The position numbers and the translations under genes are program-made. From contig JBMNOA010000004.1 in the NCBI GenBank assembly GCA_050942825.1, positions 357 to 64,356 of the forward strand: a stretch of 64,000 nt of DNA, in the 5' to 3' direction. Source of the DNA: Bacillota bacterium. Lineage in GTDB: Bacteria > Bacillota > Dehalobacteriia > UBA4068. Below are positions 8,814 to 40,988 of this stretch, in pieces (the first letter of the stretch is position 1; every line of letters begins with the position of its first letter). The notes under the pieces were generated by a model. It was not told the DNA's origin. It saw nothing but the letters and a program-made list of their open reading frames with translations, and ran no database searches.

Positions 8814-9830
8814 TTAACCGCCTTCTATCAAGCGTAGTACATCGCGATAGGTAATAATGACCATCAAGCCGATCAGAAGAGCAAAGCCGATAAAATGGAT
8901 CATGCCCTCTCTTTCTCTCTTGATCGGTTTGCGCCTTATACCCTCGACAGCCAAAAATACCAAACGGCTGCCATCTAAGGCAGGTATAGGCAAAAGATTG
9001 ATTACACCTAAATTGATACTTAAAAAACCTGTCAAGATCAATAGGTTTTGCCATCCTGTACTTGCCGCCTGGCCAACTATAGTAACCACGCCTACCGGTC
9101 CCGCTACATCAAGAGGCATTTGTCCGCTAACCATTTTTATCAGTGTCAATAAAAGTAATTTGGTCAATTCATAAGATTGACGGAAGCCCAAGGCAATCGA
9201 TTCACCCAGCCCCCTGGTCTCCATCAGGGGTGAAATGCCCACCATCCAGCGGTCACTGGCTTCATCATGATAAGGCTTTATCTTTAAAGGAAGATGTTGA
9301 CCGTCTCTTAAAACTACTACATTTAGGACTTCTCCCGGCGGTTGTTCCTGGATAACGGTGACAATATCGTTCCAGGTCTCAGTTTTTTGACCATTTATTT
9401 CTACTATAGCATCATTTTCTTTCATACCAGCAACTTGAGCAGCTTGCCCGGGTACGGTAGAACCAACAATATTGCTGGAGGAAGGCATACCCATCATCAT
9501 AAAAACAATAATAAAAATTATTATAGCTGCCACAAAATTCATCAAAGGACCTCCGGCTACCACCAGCATCCTTTGCCAAACTTTTTTTCTATTGAAGGCG
9601 CGAGGATCTGCGCTGTCCTCATCCTCACCCATCATCATACAAGCTCCGCCAATGGGCAAAGCTCTCAGAGTATATTCAGTTTCCTTTCTTTTAAAACCGA
9701 ACACTTTAGGCCCTAGACCCAAAGAAAATTCATAGACATAGATACCGTTGGCTTTGGCCAAAAGATAATGCCCTAATTCATGCGATACAATCAATATTAC
9801 AAAAATAAATATCGCTATCAATATACCCAA
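8814..9830 (-). CDS. rseP: RIP metalloprotease RseP/RasP
   Basis: HELGH, PDZ domain, NLLPIPALDG. Confidence 0.95.
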   Translation of the reverse strand: MGILIAIFIFVILIVSHELGHYLLAKANGIYVYEFSLGLGPKVFGFKRKETEYTLRALPIGGACMMMGEDEDSADPRAFNRKKVWQRMLVVAGGPLMNFVAAIIIFIIVFMMMGMPSSSNIVGSTVPGQAAQVAGMKENDAIVEINGQKTETWNDIVTVIQEQPPGEVLNVVVLRDGQHLPLKIKPYHDEASDRWMVGISPLMETRGLGESIALGFRQSYELTKLLLLTLIKMVSGQMPLDVAGPVGVVTIVGQAASTGWQNLLILTGFLSINLGVINLLPIPALDGSRLVFLAVEGIRRKPIKREREGMIHFIGFALLIGLMVIITYRDVLRLIEGG

Positions 9831-33559: not shown

Positions 33560-34771
33560 TTACAACTCCTTATCATCTACTCGGCAGCATAAAAGCCCCT
33601 TATGTAAAGTAACATTGATCTTCTCTCCAATATCCGCTTGACGAGCGTCAAGCAGGATTTGACCGTCATCTTTAGTGCAAAAAGCATAACCGCGAGCCAA
33701 AACTGACAAGGGATTGAGCAAATTTAGCTCAGTAGCTAAAGCAATTACTTGCTGCTCTCTTTTCTCCAAAGCCCTTTGCCCAAGTTCGAGCAAACTTTGC
33801 TCTGCAGTATCTAGGGCCATTTGCTTGGTTCGTAATATTAAAGACGGCTGAGTAAACAAGGGATTGTCTGATAAAATTTGCCAAGCGGCTCTTTTTCGCG
33901 CTAACTGTTCCTTTACAGCAGCTTCCAAGCGCTCTTGATAATGCTGCAGGACAGTTTGCCATTTATGGGAGTCAGGCACCGACAATTCTGCCGCATGGCT
34001 TGGTGTAGCGGCTCTGATATCGGCAGCCAAATCTGCTAATGTGTAATCAATCTCATGGCCTATAGCTGTGATTATAGGGGTTTTAGCCGCGGCAATAGCA
34101 CGCACGACAAGCTCAGTATTGAAGGCTGATAAATCCTCATAAGAACCACCGCCGCGGGCTACGATGATGAGATCATAGGCTTTTTTATCGGCTTGAATGA
34201 TCGCCGCGGCTATTTGAGCAGCCGCTGCCTCTCCCTGAACCAAAGTGGGGAAAAGGTCTAAAGAGATTTGGGGCCAGCGGTCATAAGCTATTCTTTGGAT
34301 ATCAGCCCAAGCGGCTCCTTCGGCGGAAGTCACCACGGCAATACGCTGTGGGAACAAGGGTAAGGGCTTTTTAAGCTTTTCATCAAAAAGCCCTTCTTGC
34401 GCCAGAGTTTTTTTCAATTGATCCAAAGCCAAAAAATCCCGGCCGGCTCCTACAGCAAAGATTTCCTCTACATAAAGCTGGCAAGAGGCATCTTTTTCAT
34501 ACAAAAAGACACTGCCAAAAGCAACTATATCCATACCGTTTTCAGGCACAAAAGTCAGATTGCTTTTATAACGGCGAAAAATAACACAACTGATAGAAGA
34601 TTTTTGATCTTTCAAGGTAAAATAGATATGACCTGATTTATGCTCTTTGTAGCCGCTGATCTCGCCCTTTACAGCAATAGAATTAAGAAACTCATCTTCC
34701 AGGAGTATCTCTTTGAGATAATAATTCAGTTGTGAAACACTATAAGCTTCTATTTGTTGAACTACAGCCAT
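33560..34771 (-). CDS. xseA: Exodeoxyribonuclease VII large subunit
   Basis: GEISG...SGHIYFTLKD, ARGGGSYEDL, IGHEID...D..AD.RAATPS. Confidence 0.96.
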   Translation of the reverse strand: MAVVQQIEAYSVSQLNYYLKEILLEDEFLNSIAVKGEISGYKEHKSGHIYFTLKDQKSSISCVIFRRYKSNLTFVPENGMDIVAFGSVFLYEKDASCQLYVEEIFAVGAGRDFLALDQLKKTLAQEGLFDEKLKKPLPLFPQRIAVVTSAEGAAWADIQRIAYDRWPQISLDLFPTLVQGEAAAAQIAAAIIQADKKAYDLIIVARGGGSYEDLSAFNTELVVRAIAAAKTPIITAIGHEIDYTLADLAADIRAATPSHAAELSVPDSHKWQTVLQHYQERLEAAVKEQLARKRAAWQILSDNPLFTQPSLILRTKQMALDTAEQSLLELGQRALEKREQQVIALATELNLLNPLSVLARGYAFCTKDDGQILLDARQADIGEKINVTLHKGLLCCRVDDKEL

Positions 34772-34779
34772 CTTTTCAC

Positions 34780-37209
34780 CTATTGTTTATTTTTTTCTTT
34801 AAATTGGCGTAAGACATCTACCAATTGTTCTAAATTTTCAACTTTTGGAAATTCTCCCTGGTAAAGTTCAATATGCTTATAAATCATATCTAATAACGCT
34901 TCTTCTGAGGGCGCCACAGGATTATGATTGATATCGACTCCGTTATGATCGAGTACCAAGCCCCAACGACCCAAAGAGCAGATTTTCCCTTGGGTAGGCT
35001 CTACGCTGACGAGCCAATCGCCGTAGTATGAAAGCTGCACCGGACAGGCCTCTGGACAATATGGACATACGGTTTGCACTTTTTCTGTCGGTAGAGGCGG
35101 TGTTTTGCCCAAGGGCCAGCGCAAGGTAATAGCTCCGGTAGGACAAAAAGATACACAAGCCCCGCAGCCCACGCAATCACTATCTTTAAGCGGCATCATA
35201 TAGGGCGGTGCAGCCTGAGTATCGAAGCCCCGACCCCAATAGCTAAGCGCCTCGGCCTGTACCAGATGACGGCAAACATTGATACATAAGCCGCAGAGTA
35301 TGCACTTGTTCATATTACGCCAGATCGTAGGTTGAGAAGTTTCTCTGGCATTGATATGGACTTCACCTTTAAATACTTTTCCTTGGGGATTATACTCTTG
35401 TAACAGCGGTAATAATTTACATTCATATAAATCATGGCAACCGCATTCCAAGCAACGGGAAGCTTCCTGTTGGGCTTCATATTCCGTAAAGGGCAAAGTC
35501 ACCTCATCAAAAGTATGCTTTCTTTCGTGAGCAGGCAAATAAGCAGGTTTAACCCTGTTGGCAAGTTTATGAGGGGCAATTTCCTTAGGTTCATAGTCCT
35601 CATTGACAACCAGGAAGGGGTTTATAACAGGCCTAATCTCTCCAGCTAAATAACTGTCGATAACTTTAGCTGCATTTTTGCCATGGGCAATAGCGCTGAT
35701 AGCAATATCGGGGCCTTTGTTGACAGCATCACCGCCGGCGAAGACTCCAGGCAAATTGCTGCAATATGTGCCTTCGTCAACAACAATGGTTTTGCGGCCG
35801 GATAGCTCGATATTATCCAAGCCATCGACTGCAACTTTTTGGCCGATAGCAGCAATAATCCTATCATATCTAACATCATCTACTGCGCCTTCGATAGGTA
35901 CAGGTCTGGGGCGGCCACTGGCATCAGGTTCGCCCAATTTCATTTTTTGCAAGGTTAAACCTACTGCGCGTCCGTTTTCTTCTATAACCTTGGTGGGTGC
36001 CGTCAGAAAACGCATCCACACACCTTCTTGATCAGCCTCTTTTACTTCCCATTTAGCAGCGGGCATTTCTTTGTTAGTACGTCTATAAAGCAGATCTACA
36101 TGTGAAGCACCTAAACGCAAAGCTGTGCGGGCTGCATCTATGGCAGTATTACCGCCTCCCACCACAGCCACTTTTTCTCCTTGGCAGGATACTTGGTTTT
36201 GTGCAGCCTGAAGCAAAAACTCCAATCCGCCGTAAACACCGGGCAGATTTTCTCCCTCGCAGCCCAAGGCACTGCTTTTCCAAGCACCGATTGCCAAAAA
36301 TACGGCATCATAGGCCTCTTTTAACTTGGCTATGGTGATATCTCGGCCCAGACATTTGTGATAATTTATTTTCAGGCCCATATTTTCTATCAGAGCAATC
36401 TCTTTATCTAAAACATCTTTAGGCAGGCGATATTGTGGAATACCATAACGCAACATACCACCGGCTTTAGGCATAGATTCAAACATTTCCACTTCATGAC
36501 CTAATCGCAAAAGGAAATAAGCTGCGGAAAGTCCGGCCGGGCCACTACCTACTATGGCAACTTTTTTACCGCTTTTTTCCGCCATAGGAGGTTGATACTG
36601 TTGTTCCTGGGCAAGATCCCAGTCACCAGCAAATTGTTTGAGTTTGGCAATAGATAAGGGCTGACCGGCTAATTCTCTATGACAAATTTCATTGCATTCA
36701 TCGGAACATGCTTCCGGCAACGGCCAGCATTTAATGGATTTAGCTCTTCTACGACATTCATCTTCGCAAGGATGCGGACAAATCCTGCCGATACTGGCCG
36801 GCAGAGGGTTATCTTCTTTGATCAAACGTATGGCCTCAGCATAGCGGCCATTGGCAATCAGACCGATATAGCCCTGGCAATCATTATTGGCCGGGCAGGT
36901 ATTGCGGCAAGGCGGCCTGCAATCTCCTCTGTGATCAGATAAGATAAGCTTCAAAGCCATCTCTCTGGATTTGATTATGGCAGGAGTTCTAGTATTGATA
37001 ACCATACCATCTTCTGCTAAAGTAGCACAGGCACGCACGGCTTTCGGTCTGCCTTCGATCTCTACCAAACAAAGACCGCAACCACCATACGGTTCCAGAT
37101 AATGCGTATAACAAAGATTAGGGATCTCGATGCCATTGGCTAAAGCCACCTGTAAAATATTTTGTCCTTGTTCAAACTCTATGATTTTTCCATCAATTGT
37201 CAAGCTCAT
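34780..37209 (-). CDS. StnC/NfnA-like large subunit: [2Fe-2S] + GltD-like FAD/NADPH domain + NuoG/HydA-like FeS relay
   Basis: IPNLC..CGLC..C; GSGPAGL; GGGNTAIDAAR..YRR; CLECGC; CILCGLCINVC; CVGCGACVSFCP; CPYCPEAC; no H-cluster or Mo-bisPGD body. Confidence 0.8.
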   Translation of the reverse strand: MSLTIDGKIIEFEQGQNILQVALANGIEIPNLCYTHYLEPYGGCGLCLVEIEGRPKAVRACATLAEDGMVINTRTPAIIKSREMALKLILSDHRGDCRPPCRNTCPANNDCQGYIGLIANGRYAEAIRLIKEDNPLPASIGRICPHPCEDECRRRAKSIKCWPLPEACSDECNEICHRELAGQPLSIAKLKQFAGDWDLAQEQQYQPPMAEKSGKKVAIVGSGPAGLSAAYFLLRLGHEVEMFESMPKAGGMLRYGIPQYRLPKDVLDKEIALIENMGLKINYHKCLGRDITIAKLKEAYDAVFLAIGAWKSSALGCEGENLPGVYGGLEFLLQAAQNQVSCQGEKVAVVGGGNTAIDAARTALRLGASHVDLLYRRTNKEMPAAKWEVKEADQEGVWMRFLTAPTKVIEENGRAVGLTLQKMKLGEPDASGRPRPVPIEGAVDDVRYDRIIAAIGQKVAVDGLDNIELSGRKTIVVDEGTYCSNLPGVFAGGDAVNKGPDIAISAIAHGKNAAKVIDSYLAGEIRPVINPFLVVNEDYEPKEIAPHKLANRVKPAYLPAHERKHTFDEVTLPFTEYEAQQEASRCLECGCHDLYECKLLPLLQEYNPQGKVFKGEVHINARETSQPTIWRNMNKCILCGLCINVCRHLVQAEALSYWGRGFDTQAAPPYMMPLKDSDCVGCGACVSFCPTGAITLRWPLGKTPPLPTEKVQTVCPYCPEACPVQLSYYGDWLVSVEPTQGKICSLGRWGLVLDHNGVDINHNPVAPSEEALLDMIYKHIELYQGEFPKVENLEQLVDVLRQFKEKNKQ

Positions 37210-38972
37210 GACAGCACCTCCCTATCTTTTCCGCTTAAAACTTCTATAGCTCCAAAAGGACATCGTTCCAAACATTCTCCGCATTTACTGCACTTTTCAG
37301 CATCAAGAAAATGCGCTTTTTTCAGCTCTCCCGAAATAGATTTGGTCGGACAAGCACTTACGCACAAAGTACAACCCTGACATTTATCTTCATCTATACG
37401 GTACAGTAGCAAAGCCTGGCATTTTTTGGCGGCACAGTGTTTATTTTCTATATGGTCCTTATATTCATCAGCAAAGTATTTCAAAGTAGTCAAAACAGGA
37501 TTAGGCGCTGTGCCACCCAAAGCACACAAAGAAGCAGTCCTTACAAATTGAGCCAATTCGCTCAGATCTTGAAGATCGCTTGCCAAAGCTTTACCCTCCA
37601 CGATCCTGTTCAATATTTCCAGCATTCTTTTAGTACCGGTACGGCAAGGCAGACAACGGCCACAGCTCTCATCACTAACAAAGTTCATGAAGAAACGGGC
37701 CATCTCCACCATACAGGTAGCCTCATCCATTACTATCATACCGCCGGAACCCATAATAGCCCCTGTAGCGGACAAACTTTTATATTCAATAGGCGTATCC
37801 AACAATTCAGCAGGCAAACACCCTCCCGATGGTCCGCCCATTTGTACACCTTTGAAAGGTATATCATTTTTGATGCCGCCAGCAATGTCAAAGATTAACT
37901 GCCGCAGAGTCATACCCATAGGAACTTCTACCAGACCGCCTCTTTTAACTTTACCGGCTAAAGCAAACACTTTTGTACCTTTGCTATCCTCCGTGCCCAT
38001 TGCGGCAAAAGCAGTCCCGCCATTTCTTATTATCCAAGGAACATTAGCAAATGTCTCCACATTATTGATACTGGTGGGCATCTTTTGATAACCTTTATGT
38101 ACAGGATAAGGCGGTTTAGGATAAGGCATGCCCCGCTCTCCGCTCAAAGAAGCCATCAAAGCAGTTTCTTCGCCGCACACAAAGGCACCGGCGCCTTTGA
38201 ATAATCTGATATTGAAAGAAAACCCACTGTTACAAATATTTTCACCCAAAAAACCTGCTTTATTAGCTTGATCAATAGCTATTTGCAATCTTTTTACAGC
38301 CAGGGGATATTCAGCACGGACATAGATAATGCCTTCACTTGATCCAATAGCATAAGCGGCCAGGATCATGCCTTCTAGTACCCCATGCGGATCGCCTTCC
38401 AAAATACTGCGGTCCATAAAAGCACCTGGATCACCCTCGTCGGCATTACAGATGACAAACTTTTGCTCACCCGGTGCATCTTTGGCTGCTTGCCATTTCA
38501 TCCAAGTGGGGAAACCGGCGCCGCCGCGCCCGCGCAAACCTGATACTTTCATTTGTTCAATAATCTGCAGGGGATCTTTTTTTAATGCTTCTTTTAACGC
38601 CTCATAGCCTCCAACTTCGATATAGGAATTGATATCCTGCGGATCTATATTGCCGCAATTGGCTAAAGCAATGCGAGTTTGTTTATTGATAAAAGCTAAA
38701 TCTTCTTCGTTAAGTAAATTATTGGTGGGAGTCTGTCCTGCCAGTATTTCTCGGGCAATTTTGGCTGCGCTTTTGGCATTAAGTCGGCCATAATAGGTAG
38801 CATGGCCCTCATCATCAATATATTGCAATAAAGGTTCGGCAAAACACATACCATTGCAGCCTACTTTTTGTAAAACCGCATCACTACCGGCCAAAACTTC
38901 TCTCAAAGACTCTTCTACAGCGGCAGCCCCGGCTGCCAAACCGCAACTTCCGTATCCTAATAAAAAACGCAT
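37206..38972 (-). CDS. HydB/NuoF-like FMN/NADH subunit (StnB/BfuB-like)
   Basis: SGLRGRGGAGFPT, CNADEGDPGAFMD, GAGAFVCGEET, GGPSGG, SCGRCLPCR, and two C-terminal CxxCxxCxxxCP motifs. Confidence 0.9.
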   Translation of the reverse strand: MRFLLGYGSCGLAAGAAAVEESLREVLAGSDAVLQKVGCNGMCFAEPLLQYIDDEGHATYYGRLNAKSAAKIAREILAGQTPTNNLLNEEDLAFINKQTRIALANCGNIDPQDINSYIEVGGYEALKEALKKDPLQIIEQMKVSGLRGRGGAGFPTWMKWQAAKDAPGEQKFVICNADEGDPGAFMDRSILEGDPHGVLEGMILAAYAIGSSEGIIYVRAEYPLAVKRLQIAIDQANKAGFLGENICNSGFSFNIRLFKGAGAFVCGEETALMASLSGERGMPYPKPPYPVHKGYQKMPTSINNVETFANVPWIIRNGGTAFAAMGTEDSKGTKVFALAGKVKRGGLVEVPMGMTLRQLIFDIAGGIKNDIPFKGVQMGGPSGGCLPAELLDTPIEYKSLSATGAIMGSGGMIVMDEATCMVEMARFFMNFVSDESCGRCLPCRTGTKRMLEILNRIVEGKALASDLQDLSELAQFVRTASLCALGGTAPNPVLTTLKYFADEYKDHIENKHCAAKKCQALLLYRIDEDKCQGCTLCVSACPTKSISGELKKAHFLDAEKCSKCGECLERCPFGAIEVLSGKDREVLS

Positions 38973-39475
38973 TAACGCTCACTCCCTTCCAGCTCTTTTT
39001 GACGCAAATCCTCAATAATTTCAGTAACACGTTCCGGAGTAAGCTTGCCATATACTTCACCATTGATCATGATGGCAGGAGAAAGGCTGCAACAACCTAA
39101 GCAAGCAACCCTTTCCCAACTGAAAAGCCTATCTTGAGACACTCGGCCTTCCGGTACCCCTACTGCCTTGGCAATAGAGTCGGCAATTTTGGCAGAGTCG
39201 TTCACATGGCAGGCTGTACCACTGCAAACTAAGATTTGATATTTGCCCGGCGGCTCCAGACGGAATTGAGCATAGAAAGTAACAATACCCGTCAATCTTG
39301 CCAAGGGGATGTTACAAGTCTTACTAATATGAACTAGAGCCTCTCGCGGCGAATAACCATATATTTCTTGCATTTGCTGCAAAAGAGCAATCAGATTCAT
39401 GTCCGATTGCGGAACAGATGATAACAGAGAATCTAAAGGGGTTAAGTCGATGGCGCTTTCGCTCTGACTTATCAT
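38972..39475 (-). CDS. HydC/NuoE-like [2Fe-2S] subunit (StnA/BfuC-like)
   Basis: VTFYAQF, CSGTAC, CLGCCSLSP. Confidence 0.9.
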   Translation of the reverse strand: MISQSESAIDLTPLDSLLSSVPQSDMNLIALLQQMQEIYGYSPREALVHISKTCNIPLARLTGIVTFYAQFRLEPPGKYQILVCSGTACHVNDSAKIADSIAKAVGVPEGRVSQDRLFSWERVACLGCCSLSPAIMINGEVYGKLTPERVTEIIEDLRQKELEGSER

Positions 39476-39577
39476 AGTCTCAACAGCTCCTTTTAATTAT
39501 ATTCTTTATTATAAGCCGAACTGTCTCTTCTTAATTGTAATAACCGCTAAGTAACAACAATTCAGCTCCCTATGAAG

Positions 39578-40516
39578 TTATTTATGAATAATATCCCTGC
39601 CCAAAAGTGCAACGCCGACCGCATTGTCCCCCGCATAATCAGCCCGGGCAAAATACAGTTCAGCATGGTCATTAAGCTGGGTTAATAATCTCTCTTTTAT
39701 GATACTGTTAGCCATAACTCCTCCCGCTAACAGCACCTTTTTTATTCCGCTTTGTCTGCTGATAAAAATCATGGCTTGGGCCAAGCTGTCGGCAATATTG
39801 ATCAAAACAGCCCATGCCAGGCGATTAAAGTCCTCGCCCTGATCCAGCAAGCGTTTAGCAGCGCTTTGGGGTCCGTTAAAATAAATATGGTTTTCTTTTA
39901 CCGATACAGGCAGCTTGATCGGCGGTCCGGTGGCTTGCCGAGCCAATTTTTCCAAATGACTGCCGGCGGGAAAAGGTAAACCCATAGCTACACCTATTCT
40001 GTCTATATATTGACCGGCGGCTAAATCACTATCACCGATTATAGTGATAGCAAAAGCCCCCTTTTGCCTTTTTACATGCAGCACCTCTCCGGTACCTCCG
40101 GACAGGTGTAAGGCCAAAAACTCCTCCTCATCCAAAGGCTTGTCCAGTGACCACAAAGCTGCCTGCAAATGGCCTTCTTGATGGCTTGTAGCAGCAAAGG
40201 GCACATTGAGGGTATCAGCAAGCATACGTGCAATACTGCCGCCGACACGAAAAACCGGCATATAAGATCCCTCCACAGGACGGGGTCTGGTAGAAGCACA
40301 AATACCCTTAATCTTTTTGTTATCTACAATTTGATAAACTTGTTGCAGAAGCTGCGGAAACTGAGCCAAGTGCAAGAAAAGCGCCTGTGATTGAGCCAAT
40401 CCGCAGGCACCGTCCGGAACTTGCAAAAGTTGGCGGCAATCGGCCAGCGCAACCCCATTGTAATCAACTATTGCCAAAGATGTAGTGTAACAGCTTGTAT
40501 CAATACCCAGAATCAC
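39578..40516 (-). CDS. TsaD/Kae1-like (peptidase M22 family) paralog
   Basis: LGIDTSCYTTS, SHQEGH, LSGG, GQYIDR, AGGVMAN, GDNAVGVA. Confidence 0.8.
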   Translation of the reverse strand: MILGIDTSCYTTSLAIVDYNGVALADCRQLLQVPDGACGLAQSQALFLHLAQFPQLLQQVYQIVDNKKIKGICASTRPRPVEGSYMPVFRVGGSIARMLADTLNVPFAATSHQEGHLQAALWSLDKPLDEEEFLALHLSGGTGEVLHVKRQKGAFAITIIGDSDLAAGQYIDRIGVAMGLPFPAGSHLEKLARQATGPPIKLPVSVKENHIYFNGPQSAAKRLLDQGEDFNRLAWAVLINIADSLAQAMIFISRQSGIKKVLLAGGVMANSIIKERLLTQLNDHAELYFARADYAGDNAVGVALLGRDIIHK

Positions 40517-40970
40517 TCTGTTGTTCTACTCCTTTTTCCTCGTCTATGCCCTTGATATCTCCCAGATTATTATGGTGAGTTTTTTTAATATTGTCCAAAA
40601 CAGCATTTACAAAAGAACCCGAATCTTCCGTACTGAATTTTTTTGCTAATTCAATTGCTTCATTGATGACTATATTTGATTCAGCAGCCTTAGTATCATA
40701 TTCCAGTTCATAGATAGCTAAACGTAAAATATTTTTATCTACATTGGCCAAACGGTCTACATTCCACTCTCTGCTGCGGGAATTGATTAATAAATCAATC
40801 TGTTGCATATTTTCCCTGGCTCCCAGAACTAATTTAGCAGCGAAATCCTTATTGATCTCCGTCAAATCAGCATTATCTAATGTGACTTGAGCCATCTGCC
40901 ATTCATTTTGTCCCACATCCAGTTGAAAAAGCATCTGCAGAGCAGTTTCACGCGCTTTGCGCCTGCTCAT
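40500..40970 (-). CDS. nusB: Transcription antitermination factor NusB
   Basis: RRKARE.ALQ.LFQ, VDKNILRLA, INEAIELAK, FVNAVLD. Confidence 0.96.
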   Translation of the reverse strand: MSRRKARETALQMLFQLDVGQNEWQMAQVTLDNADLTEINKDFAAKLVLGARENMQQIDLLINSRSREWNVDRLANVDKNILRLAIYELEYDTKAAESNIVINEAIELAKKFSTEDSGSFVNAVLDNIKKTHHNNLGDIKGIDEEKGVEQQSDSGY

Positions 40971-40988
40971 TCGTTCATCCTCCAATAA

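Follow-up and report, generated by a model that had tools for sequence, protein, structure and literature searches.

The DNA analyzed here is a stretch of 64,000 nt (the window) from a Bacillota bacterium: assembly GCA_050942825.1, contig JBMNOA010000004.1, positions 357 to 64,356. Positions 34,780 to 39,475 of the window contain three genes which very probably code for an Nfn-type, ferredoxin-coupled transhydrogenase, that is, a soluble three-subunit NADH-dependent reduced ferredoxin:NADP+ oxidoreductase. It is a short structural variant of a kind of enzyme which is known, characterised and structurally solved. We have not found this variant described in the literature on the family that we have searched. 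All the defining features of the Nfn-Bfu/StnABC family that can be tested in a sequence are predicted to be present, except for the FdhF-like domain. The original prediction, made from the sequence alone, had placed a three-subunit complex in this region, and three minus-strand open reading frames (ORFs) match its coordinates exactly (lengths in amino acids, aa):

38972..39475, minus strand: small subunit gene (NfnC / StnA / BfuC; NuoE-HydC-like), 167 aa, 18.3 kDa
37206..38972, minus strand: B subunit gene (NfnB / StnB / BfuB; NuoF-HydB-like), 588 aa, 63.1 kDa
34780..37209, minus strand: large subunit gene (short form of NfnA / StnC / BfuA), 809 aa, 89.0 kDa

The three genes are adjacent and form an operon, as in the Nfn-Bfu/StnABC family. 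Neighbouring genes overlap, by 1 nt between the small and B subunits and by 4 nt between the B and large subunits: The trio is translationally coupled. This C-B-A gene order is kept in 26 of the 30 genome loci we have inspected.

Three characterised enzymes are the top three PDB matches for every subunit: NfnABC of Caldicellulosiruptor saccharolyticus (PDB 9bov/9bp5; PMC11829005), StnABC of Sporomusa ovata (PDB 8oh5/8oh9; PMC7483475, PMC10482914) and NfnABC of Thermococcus sibiricus (PDB 9n5u/9n5v; PMC9304861, PMC12018979). StnABC and NfnABC had been named as analogues in the original prediction, which agrees with this result. The C. saccharolyticus enzyme is the top match for the large and B subunits.

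The small and B subunits appear to form a complete Bfu core: To judge from their ligand motifs, the B2–B5, B1 and C1 sites are all intact. The sites which separate Bfu cores from non-bifurcating homologues are B2, B3, B4 and B5, which the latter lack (PMC11829005). The small subunit matches the 2Fe-2S_thioredx family of Pfam (PF01257, E 2e-45) and contains the C1 [2Fe-2S] site, C84-x4-C89-x35-C125-x3-C129. Its best PDB matches are 9n5u_C, 9bov_C and 8oh5_A. In the B subunit, Pfam and NCBIfam recognise the Complex1_51K (PF01512) and NADH_4Fe-4S (PF10589) domains and a C-terminal dicluster ferredoxin. Its FMN/NAD(H) site consists of G148RGGAGFP and A177DEGDPGAFMD, the motifs GERGMP (278–283) and GGPSGG (379–384) are also present, and the ligands of the B1 [4Fe-4S] cluster are C437/440/443/483. 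The B2 site, H507-x5-C513-x4-C518, a His/Cys linker which has Zn in the solved enzymes, aligns with the same residues of 9bov_B, 8oh5_B and 9n5u_B. The B3/B4 pair, 2x[4Fe-4S], has ligands C531/534/537/541 and C561/564/567/571 in CxxCxxCxxxCP motifs at 531–542 and 561–572. At the N-terminus of the subunit, a thioredoxin-like domain contains the B5 site, either [2Fe-2S] or Zn, with C10/C39/C43 (GSCG...GCxGMC) as in C. saccharolyticus, S. ovata and T. sibiricus. The B subunit matches 9bov_B over its full length (6e-240, 801 bits), followed by 8oh5_B (8e-231) and 9n5u_B (5e-223). HydB chains of bifurcating hydrogenases come next, while non-bifurcating FdsB/Nqo1 are far lower, at about 1e-119 to 1e-110.

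All the motifs quoted in the original prediction are found, namely ADEGDPGAFMD, G-M-P, GGPSG, H-x5-C-x4-C, 2x[4Fe-4S], GGGN...YRR in the large subunit and the N-terminal Cys10/39/43. Some of them had been read there as bifurcation signatures, which is right only in part: The B2–B5 sites are such signatures and they are present, while ADEGDPGAFMD, GMP and GGPSG belong to FMN/NADH sites of the NuoF type in general and are not specific for bifurcation.

The large subunit contains Fer2_4, Fer4_20, Pyr_redox_2, 2x[4Fe-4S] and Molybdop_Fe4S4 domains (Pfam, NCBIfam). A GltD/NfnL-type FAD/NADPH domain is inserted within a Fe-S scaffold of the NuoG/HydA type. Its parts are the following:

36934..37209, minus strand: residues 1-92, N-terminal [2Fe-2S] ferredoxin domain (C33, C44, C47, C61), PF13510 E 1.7e-19
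36748..36933, minus strand: residues 93-154, GltD-type Fe-S domain, PF14691
36676..36747, minus strand: residues 155-178, 24-aa insert RAKSIKCWPLPEACSDECNEICHR, a gap in all three PDB alignments
35635..36582, minus strand: residues ~210-525, FAD domain (G221SGPAG) and NADPH domain (G351GGNTA, Y375RR), PF07992 E 1.7e-33
34978..35454, minus strand: residues 586-744, NuoG-like part with four [4Fe-4S] sites, from Cys motifs
34783..34977, minus strand: residues 745-809, short C-terminal tail with three predicted helices, from the alignment and an AlphaFold2 (AF2) model

One [2Fe-2S] and six [4Fe-4S] sites are thus predicted in this subunit, and their ligands are invariant in 58 short and long homologues. 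C97/101/105/111/144/148/152, together with the downstream K191, are the eight ligands of the two FAD-adjacent [4Fe-4S] clusters (A6/A7 = C6/C7). Which ligand would serve which of the two clusters we infer. In the NuoG-like part the ligands are C586/589/591/597, the pair C636/639/642/646 and C679/682/685/689, and the Molybdop_Fe4S4 set C715/718/722/744; the last two of these four sites correspond to the A4 and A5 (C2/C1) clusters, which are off the electron path. The names of the clusters are putative assignments from sequence motifs. Mutagenesis of StnC has drawn attention to C114, R239 and K170, the last of which binds the FAD-proximal cluster and has been reported to be strictly conserved in StnC (PMC10482914). 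In our alignment they correspond to C111, R261 and K191, respectively, and K191 is invariant in the 58 homologues. The Rossmann motifs are GxGxxG at 221 and GxGxxA at 351, the latter followed by YRR; a second Rossmann motif of the GxGxxA form is of the NADP(H) type (Kremp 2020, PMC7483475).

Sequence and fold agree. The large subunit matches 9bov_A (E 3e-247, 826 bits), 8oh5_C (2e-222) and 9n5u_A (3e-172). An AF2 model built from the 58-sequence alignment has a mean predicted local distance difference test (pLDDT) of 90.1 and a predicted template modelling score (pTM) of 0.89. In Foldseek its query-normalised template modelling (TM) scores are 0.87 for 9bov_A, 0.86 for 8oh5_C and 0.83 for 9n5u_A; the next matches cover the GltD/NfnL half alone, with a TM of 0.46. 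Hydrogenase models match the large subunit solely at Fe-S residues 2-112 and 629-697, with no H-cluster domain. A catalytic domain which binds molybdopterin is not found either: The subunit has the Molybdop_Fe4S4 motif alone (PF04879, E 5.6e-4), with no PF00384. The claim of the original prediction that a GltD/NfnB-like FAD domain lies in a NuoG/HydA scaffold lacking the H-cluster is therefore borne out by Pfam, NCBIfam and the fold. Taken together, the PDB ranking, the fold, the Bfu sites, the StnC residues and the NADP(H) motif support the Nfn/Stn interpretation.

StnABC has the same three subunit types, the same seven Fe-S sites in the large subunit and the same metal sites in the B subunit. 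The large subunit is 47% identical to StnC, with a root mean square deviation of 2.3 Å over 761 columns, and the same reaction is expected. On the other hand, StnABC does not have the 24-aa insert with its four Cys. StnC is 1172 aa long, and only about 125 residues, the first of its FdhF-like region, remain in our protein, as the Molybdop_Fe4S4 cluster and a helical tail. C. saccharolyticus is a fermentative Firmicute. Its NfnA (1178 aa, 50% identical) has a full pterin-less Fdh-like domain and its complex is tetrameric; A4/A5 form a dead-end branch and Zn is found at B5 and B2 (PMC11829005). The T. sibiricus enzyme is archaeal, and its large subunit is 40% identical and has a partial C-terminal domain. 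This subunit is naturally shortened to 963 aa and still bifurcates (PMC9304861, PMC12018979), so a full FdhF-like domain is dispensable in principle. Such variation indicates that the domain is typical of the family, not defining. T. sibiricus NfnA has been reported to be without A4, and equivalents of C646/679/682/685 are absent from it, while the protein in the window keeps the ligands of both A4 and A5 although it is 154 aa shorter.

Other related enzymes differ more clearly. The FAD/NADPH domain and two [4Fe-4S] clusters are homologous to NfnL/NfnB of the NfnSL/NfnAB enzymes (T. maritima 4ylf, P. furiosus 5jca; E 3e-88, TMt 0.77–0.80). NfnSL catalyses the same overall reaction with another machine, in which bifurcation takes place at the FAD of NfnL, with the small FNR-like NfnS as the partner. 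The genome contains no NfnS and no stand-alone NfnL of about 470 aa. HydABC has a homologous B/C core, with an identity of 58% between HydB of this genome and the B subunit, and of 39% between its HydC and the small subunit. In the complex described here, an NADPH flavoprotein domain takes the place of the H-cluster domain. Fdh-Bfu and FdsABG have molybdopterin catalytic domains, which are absent from our large subunit.

The genome has 1.87 Mb in 140 contigs, is about 97% complete and comes from a bioreactor metagenome; 99% of the words sampled from it recur in an independent run listing. Its RecA is at most 78% identical to that of any species representative, with best matches scattered among Bacillota and other lineages. 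RecA thus places it in a deep Bacillota lineage, no finer. Three Bfu-type modules are found: the Nfn-type operon, a HydABC operon (contig C66) and an Fdh-type operon (contig C65). There are also two pyruvate:ferredoxin oxidoreductases and two further 2-oxoacid oxidoreductases. Our inventory found no Rnf, no PntB (PntAB), no stand-alone NfnL/NfnSL and no carbon monoxide dehydrogenase/acetyl-CoA synthase (CODH/ACS); with no CODH/ACS the host is no acetogen, another difference from the StnABC system. The best match to TIGR01316 in the genome is the fused large subunit. Without NfnSL, Rnf or PntAB, the Nfn-type operon is the sole recognisable transhydrogenase of this genome. This agrees with the original suggestion that the organism links its three redox pools with a minimal version of the enzyme: Its large subunit has 809 aa, while those of the characterised enzymes all have more (1172, 1178 and 963 aa).

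To judge from homology to the solved enzymes, NADPH would deliver a hydride to the FAD in the GltD-like domain of the large subunit. From there, single electrons would reach B1, which adjoins the FMN in the B subunit, by way of the two [4Fe-4S] clusters next to the FAD, then the clusters of the NuoG type and the N-terminal [2Fe-2S]. The FMN/B1/C1 'flavobicluster' would divide them: One branch would reduce NAD+ at the FMN, the other would use the small subunit's mobile [2Fe-2S] domain to arrive at B3/B4 and then at ferredoxin. The likely direction in the cell is the reverse (confurcation), NADH + reduced ferredoxin + 2 NADP+ -> NAD+ + oxidised ferredoxin + 2 NADPH, since reduced ferredoxin is made and the complex is the sole recognisable link from ferredoxin and NADH to NADPH. 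Confurcation would supply biosynthetic NADPH in a fermentative Bacillota species from a bioreactor.

One feature which sets this enzyme apart from the characterised ones is the absence of the FdhF-like body. In S. ovata, residues 683-1172 of StnC form a catalytically dead FdhF-like domain, which is the core of the tetramer (PMC10482914). In our protein a tail replaces the cofactor-less FdhF/MopB-like body of the long forms, about 430 aa. The alignments to 9bov_A and 8oh5_C end at residue 732 of these chains, the large subunit stops 57 residues later, and its end lies about 65 residues beyond the Molybdop_Fe4S4 cluster. In the AF2 model the helices of the tail (745-756, 769-777 and 793-808) have pLDDT values of 76–94. 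None of the seven Fe-S sites has lost its ligands in the short form, not even those of the off-path ferredoxin-type and Molybdop_Fe4S4 clusters. The original prediction was right about a minimal enzyme, but it overlooked the significance of both the absent domain and the retained off-path clusters.

Large subunits of this length are not an isolated case. Lengths are bimodal among the best 120 database homologues: 45 have 750–809 aa and 72 have at least 1100 aa. The end point is shared by 49 of 131 sampled homologues, which form one deep, well-supported group. In an unrooted tree of the 131 sequences, built from shared columns with the insert and the tail removed and with intermediates of 875–960 aa left out, a single change separates short and long forms, with a support of 99–100 (99 with the shared columns alone). 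The short large subunits, of about 750–810 aa, appear to be a deep subfamily with a single origin. Most genomes in the same family and order have long forms, with 1126–1196 aa. The intermediate large subunits (L001, L005, L012, L013, L017, L020, L023, L060 and L064) are found in Candidatus Fimenecus, Eubacterium sp. CAG:180 and metagenome-assembled genomes (MAGs) of Ruminococcaceae. Their existence suggests that the FdhF-like domain has been trimmed to several extents, and that its erosion is a wider theme.

We have considered whether the FdhF-like domain might be present as a split-off gene. A tblastn comparison of five long-form C-terminal domains with the genome detects only the genuine FdhA, with 22–30% identity, and no conserved fourth gene is found beside the short-form operons in the loci inspected. 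In the literature on StnABC/NfnABC that we have searched, StnC/NfnA proteins of 750–810 aa are not described, which is no proof of absence. The shortest "potential StnC" entries in Table 1 of Kremp 2020 have 891–898 aa and 31–33% identity (PMC7483475). They include Desulfosporosinus and Dehalobacter, and their length and identity match true FdhA, such as the 894-aa FdhA of this genome. These entries may be of the Fdh type rather than Stn.

A second feature, with a much narrower distribution, is the 24-aa insert. It lies between C152 and K191, inside the ligand set of the two clusters next to the FAD, and contains C161, C168, C172 and C176. Only 8 of the 131 homologues have it. They form one clade, with a support of 100 and one change on the tree, which includes a genome of the same genus, one of a sister genus and metagenomic sequences. 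The four Cys are invariant in the six distinct database proteins of this clade. The positions in between are variable, and in one relative three residues are deleted. The insert shows the same CxxxCxxxC pattern as the two motifs before it, its DNA is bounded by TGTCGTAGA / TGTCATAGA, and HMMER aligns a single ACRRE segment of S. ovata to both of its flanks. All this fits a local duplication. The insert is a putative metal site, which would probably hold an extra Fe-S cluster or Zn. We have not found it described in the searched literature on the StnABC/NfnABC family.

Three metagenomic sisters in the insert clade (P0004, P0005 and P0006) have V---CILPLP in place of LYRRT. This deletion of three residues removes YRR, the mark of NADPH binding, at a place which aligns to residues 375-377 of the large subunit (window 36079-36087). 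The third substrate or the nucleotide preference of these proteins may differ from those of the window enzyme.

Some observations weigh against a bifurcating transhydrogenase in this short form. One comes from S. ovata: Deletion of the FdhF-like domain, or mutation of the C1/C2 cluster ligands, prevented the recovery of an active, correctly assembled complex (PMC10482914), so the function of a form lacking the domain cannot be assumed. The loss of YRR in P0004, P0005 and P0006 indicates that substrate use may not be uniform in the insert clade. The insert has no confident structure in the AF2 model, with a pLDDT below 50 at 161-175. Finally, no RNA run contains the locus: The single run which holds the sequence is a DNA metagenome from a bioreactor.

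These points bear on other explanations. If the loss of the FdhF-like body and the tetramer, and/or the added Cys loop, had uncoupled the two branches, the short complex would be a non-bifurcating NADPH:NAD+ transhydrogenase or an NADPH:ferredoxin oxidoreductase. The requirement for the domain in active, assembled StnABC would fit this explanation, and P. furiosus NfnII/Xfn is a precedent for a homologue which does not bifurcate. We nevertheless consider it very improbable. Bifurcation takes place in the B/C core and not in the domain that was lost; B2–B5 and C1 are intact, in full-length alignment with three enzymes proven to bifurcate, and non-bifurcating homologues do not have such sites. 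It is also very unlikely, in our opinion, that the enzyme has a different third reaction or partner, with electrons entering or leaving through the four-Cys insert or the uncovered A4/A5 branch. Such a partner might be a sulfur compound, as was once proposed for the NsoABC homologue of T. litoralis, or some redox protein outside the complex. In favour of this, the ligands of the off-path A4/A5 clusters have remained invariant though the protein shell is gone, and four extra invariant Cys adjoin the FAD-proximal cluster. On the other hand, no fourth gene accompanies the short-form operons, no FdhF-like gene has been split off, and the NADPH motifs of the window copy are intact. Nso itself is possibly an Nfn-type enzyme, according to Kremp 2020 (PMC7483475).

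We have also considered that the 809-aa gene might be what is left of a long StnC after truncation, decay or faulty assembly, and that the complex might be inactive. The long forms in most genomes of the same family and order might suggest this, but it is extremely improbable. The 49 homologues ending at the same point form one deep group, the tail is conserved and predicted to be helical, and all the ligands are invariant. Both here and in the sister genus, xseA starts 8 nt past the large-subunit stop codon, and both the completeness of the genome and the recovery of its sampled words in the independent run listing argue against faulty assembly. An artefact of truncation or assembly is effectively refuted by the shared end point, the tree and the conserved adjacency of xseA. 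A ferredoxin-coupled Nfn-type transhydrogenase is our preferred explanation. A more specific proposal, which we think rather unlikely, is that the short subfamily is a functionally distinct minimal enzyme which works as a free heterotrimer of about 170 kDa (compared with a tetramer of about 840 kDa). Its A4/A5 clusters would be functional, for example as an electron buffer or an exposed second docking site. In this genus, the duplicated CxxxCxxxC loop of the insert would house an additional, eighth Fe-S cluster, which would retune its FAD-proximal neighbour or add an electron port.

Nfn-Bfu enzymes govern the balance of NADH, NADPH and ferredoxin in many anaerobes, and the mechanism of bifurcation is under active structural study. 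The function proposed here is in itself not surprising: The variant bears on the purpose of the 'relic' domain and of the off-path clusters. A natural enzyme without the FdhF-like body contradicts the most straightforward interpretation of the domain deletion in S. ovata, and the survival of the off-path ligands without the domain suggests that these clusters are more than relics. With its roughly 170 kDa, the protomer is also a smaller model for mechanistic and cryo-electron microscopy work. The short form is often met in MAGs of Clostridia, such as those of Oscillospiraceae and Acutalibacteraceae. Its homologues are named 'formate dehydrogenase major subunit', 'FAD-dependent oxidoreductase' or 'molybdopterin-dependent oxidoreductase', much as the original prediction had anticipated that automatic pipelines would mislabel it. 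Since such mislabelling is routine, this transhydrogenase is probably overlooked when the metabolism of gut and bioreactor communities is reconstructed.

The surroundings of the operon (window 33560-40985) are a row of housekeeping genes: nusB, a 312-aa ORF, nfnCBA, xseA and then a gene similar to polyprenyl synthases. The B-A-xseA order is kept in the sister genus (G006), which indicates vertical inheritance, and the locus of a genome from the same genus (G001) shows A-xseA. No terminator is found between the large subunit gene and xseA. Upstream of the operon there is a short intergenic region:

39476..39577, minus strand: upstream intergenic region, 102 nt, containing a TATAAT box and, 9 nt ahead of the ATG, a ribosome-binding site (AAAGGAG)

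From these sequence elements, the region is possibly the operon's own promoter. A consensus scan detects no strong full promoter in it. The counts in the promoter and terminator scan are not above those of shuffled controls, so it is gene spacing alone which supports the operon boundaries.

The other two Bfu-type modules also deserve a comment. The HydABC-type [FeFe]-hydrogenase operon (L085, G000:C66:1501-6200) has a genuine HydA. HydB has 498 aa there, and its N-terminal thioredoxin-like (B5) domain is encoded upstream, in an ORF of its own. This ORF, of 121 aa, has no NCBIfam match at E <= 1e-10. The Fdh-type module (L084, G000:C65:28001-36000) contains a NuoE-like protein of 167 aa, a HydB-like protein of 625 aa and the 894-aa FdhA (TIGR01591, 894 bits), followed by mobA, fdhD and focA. 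This module probably codes for a formate dehydrogenase linked to NADH/ferredoxin; CODH/ACS, as mentioned, is not found in the genome. Finally, the minus strand of G000:C36, at about 7.6-9.9 kb (the ORF covering 9203-9784), contains a 781-aa frame, which has a GltD-type Fe-S/FAD N-terminus (TIGR01316 positions 28-239, E 2e-29) and a long Cys-rich C-terminus.

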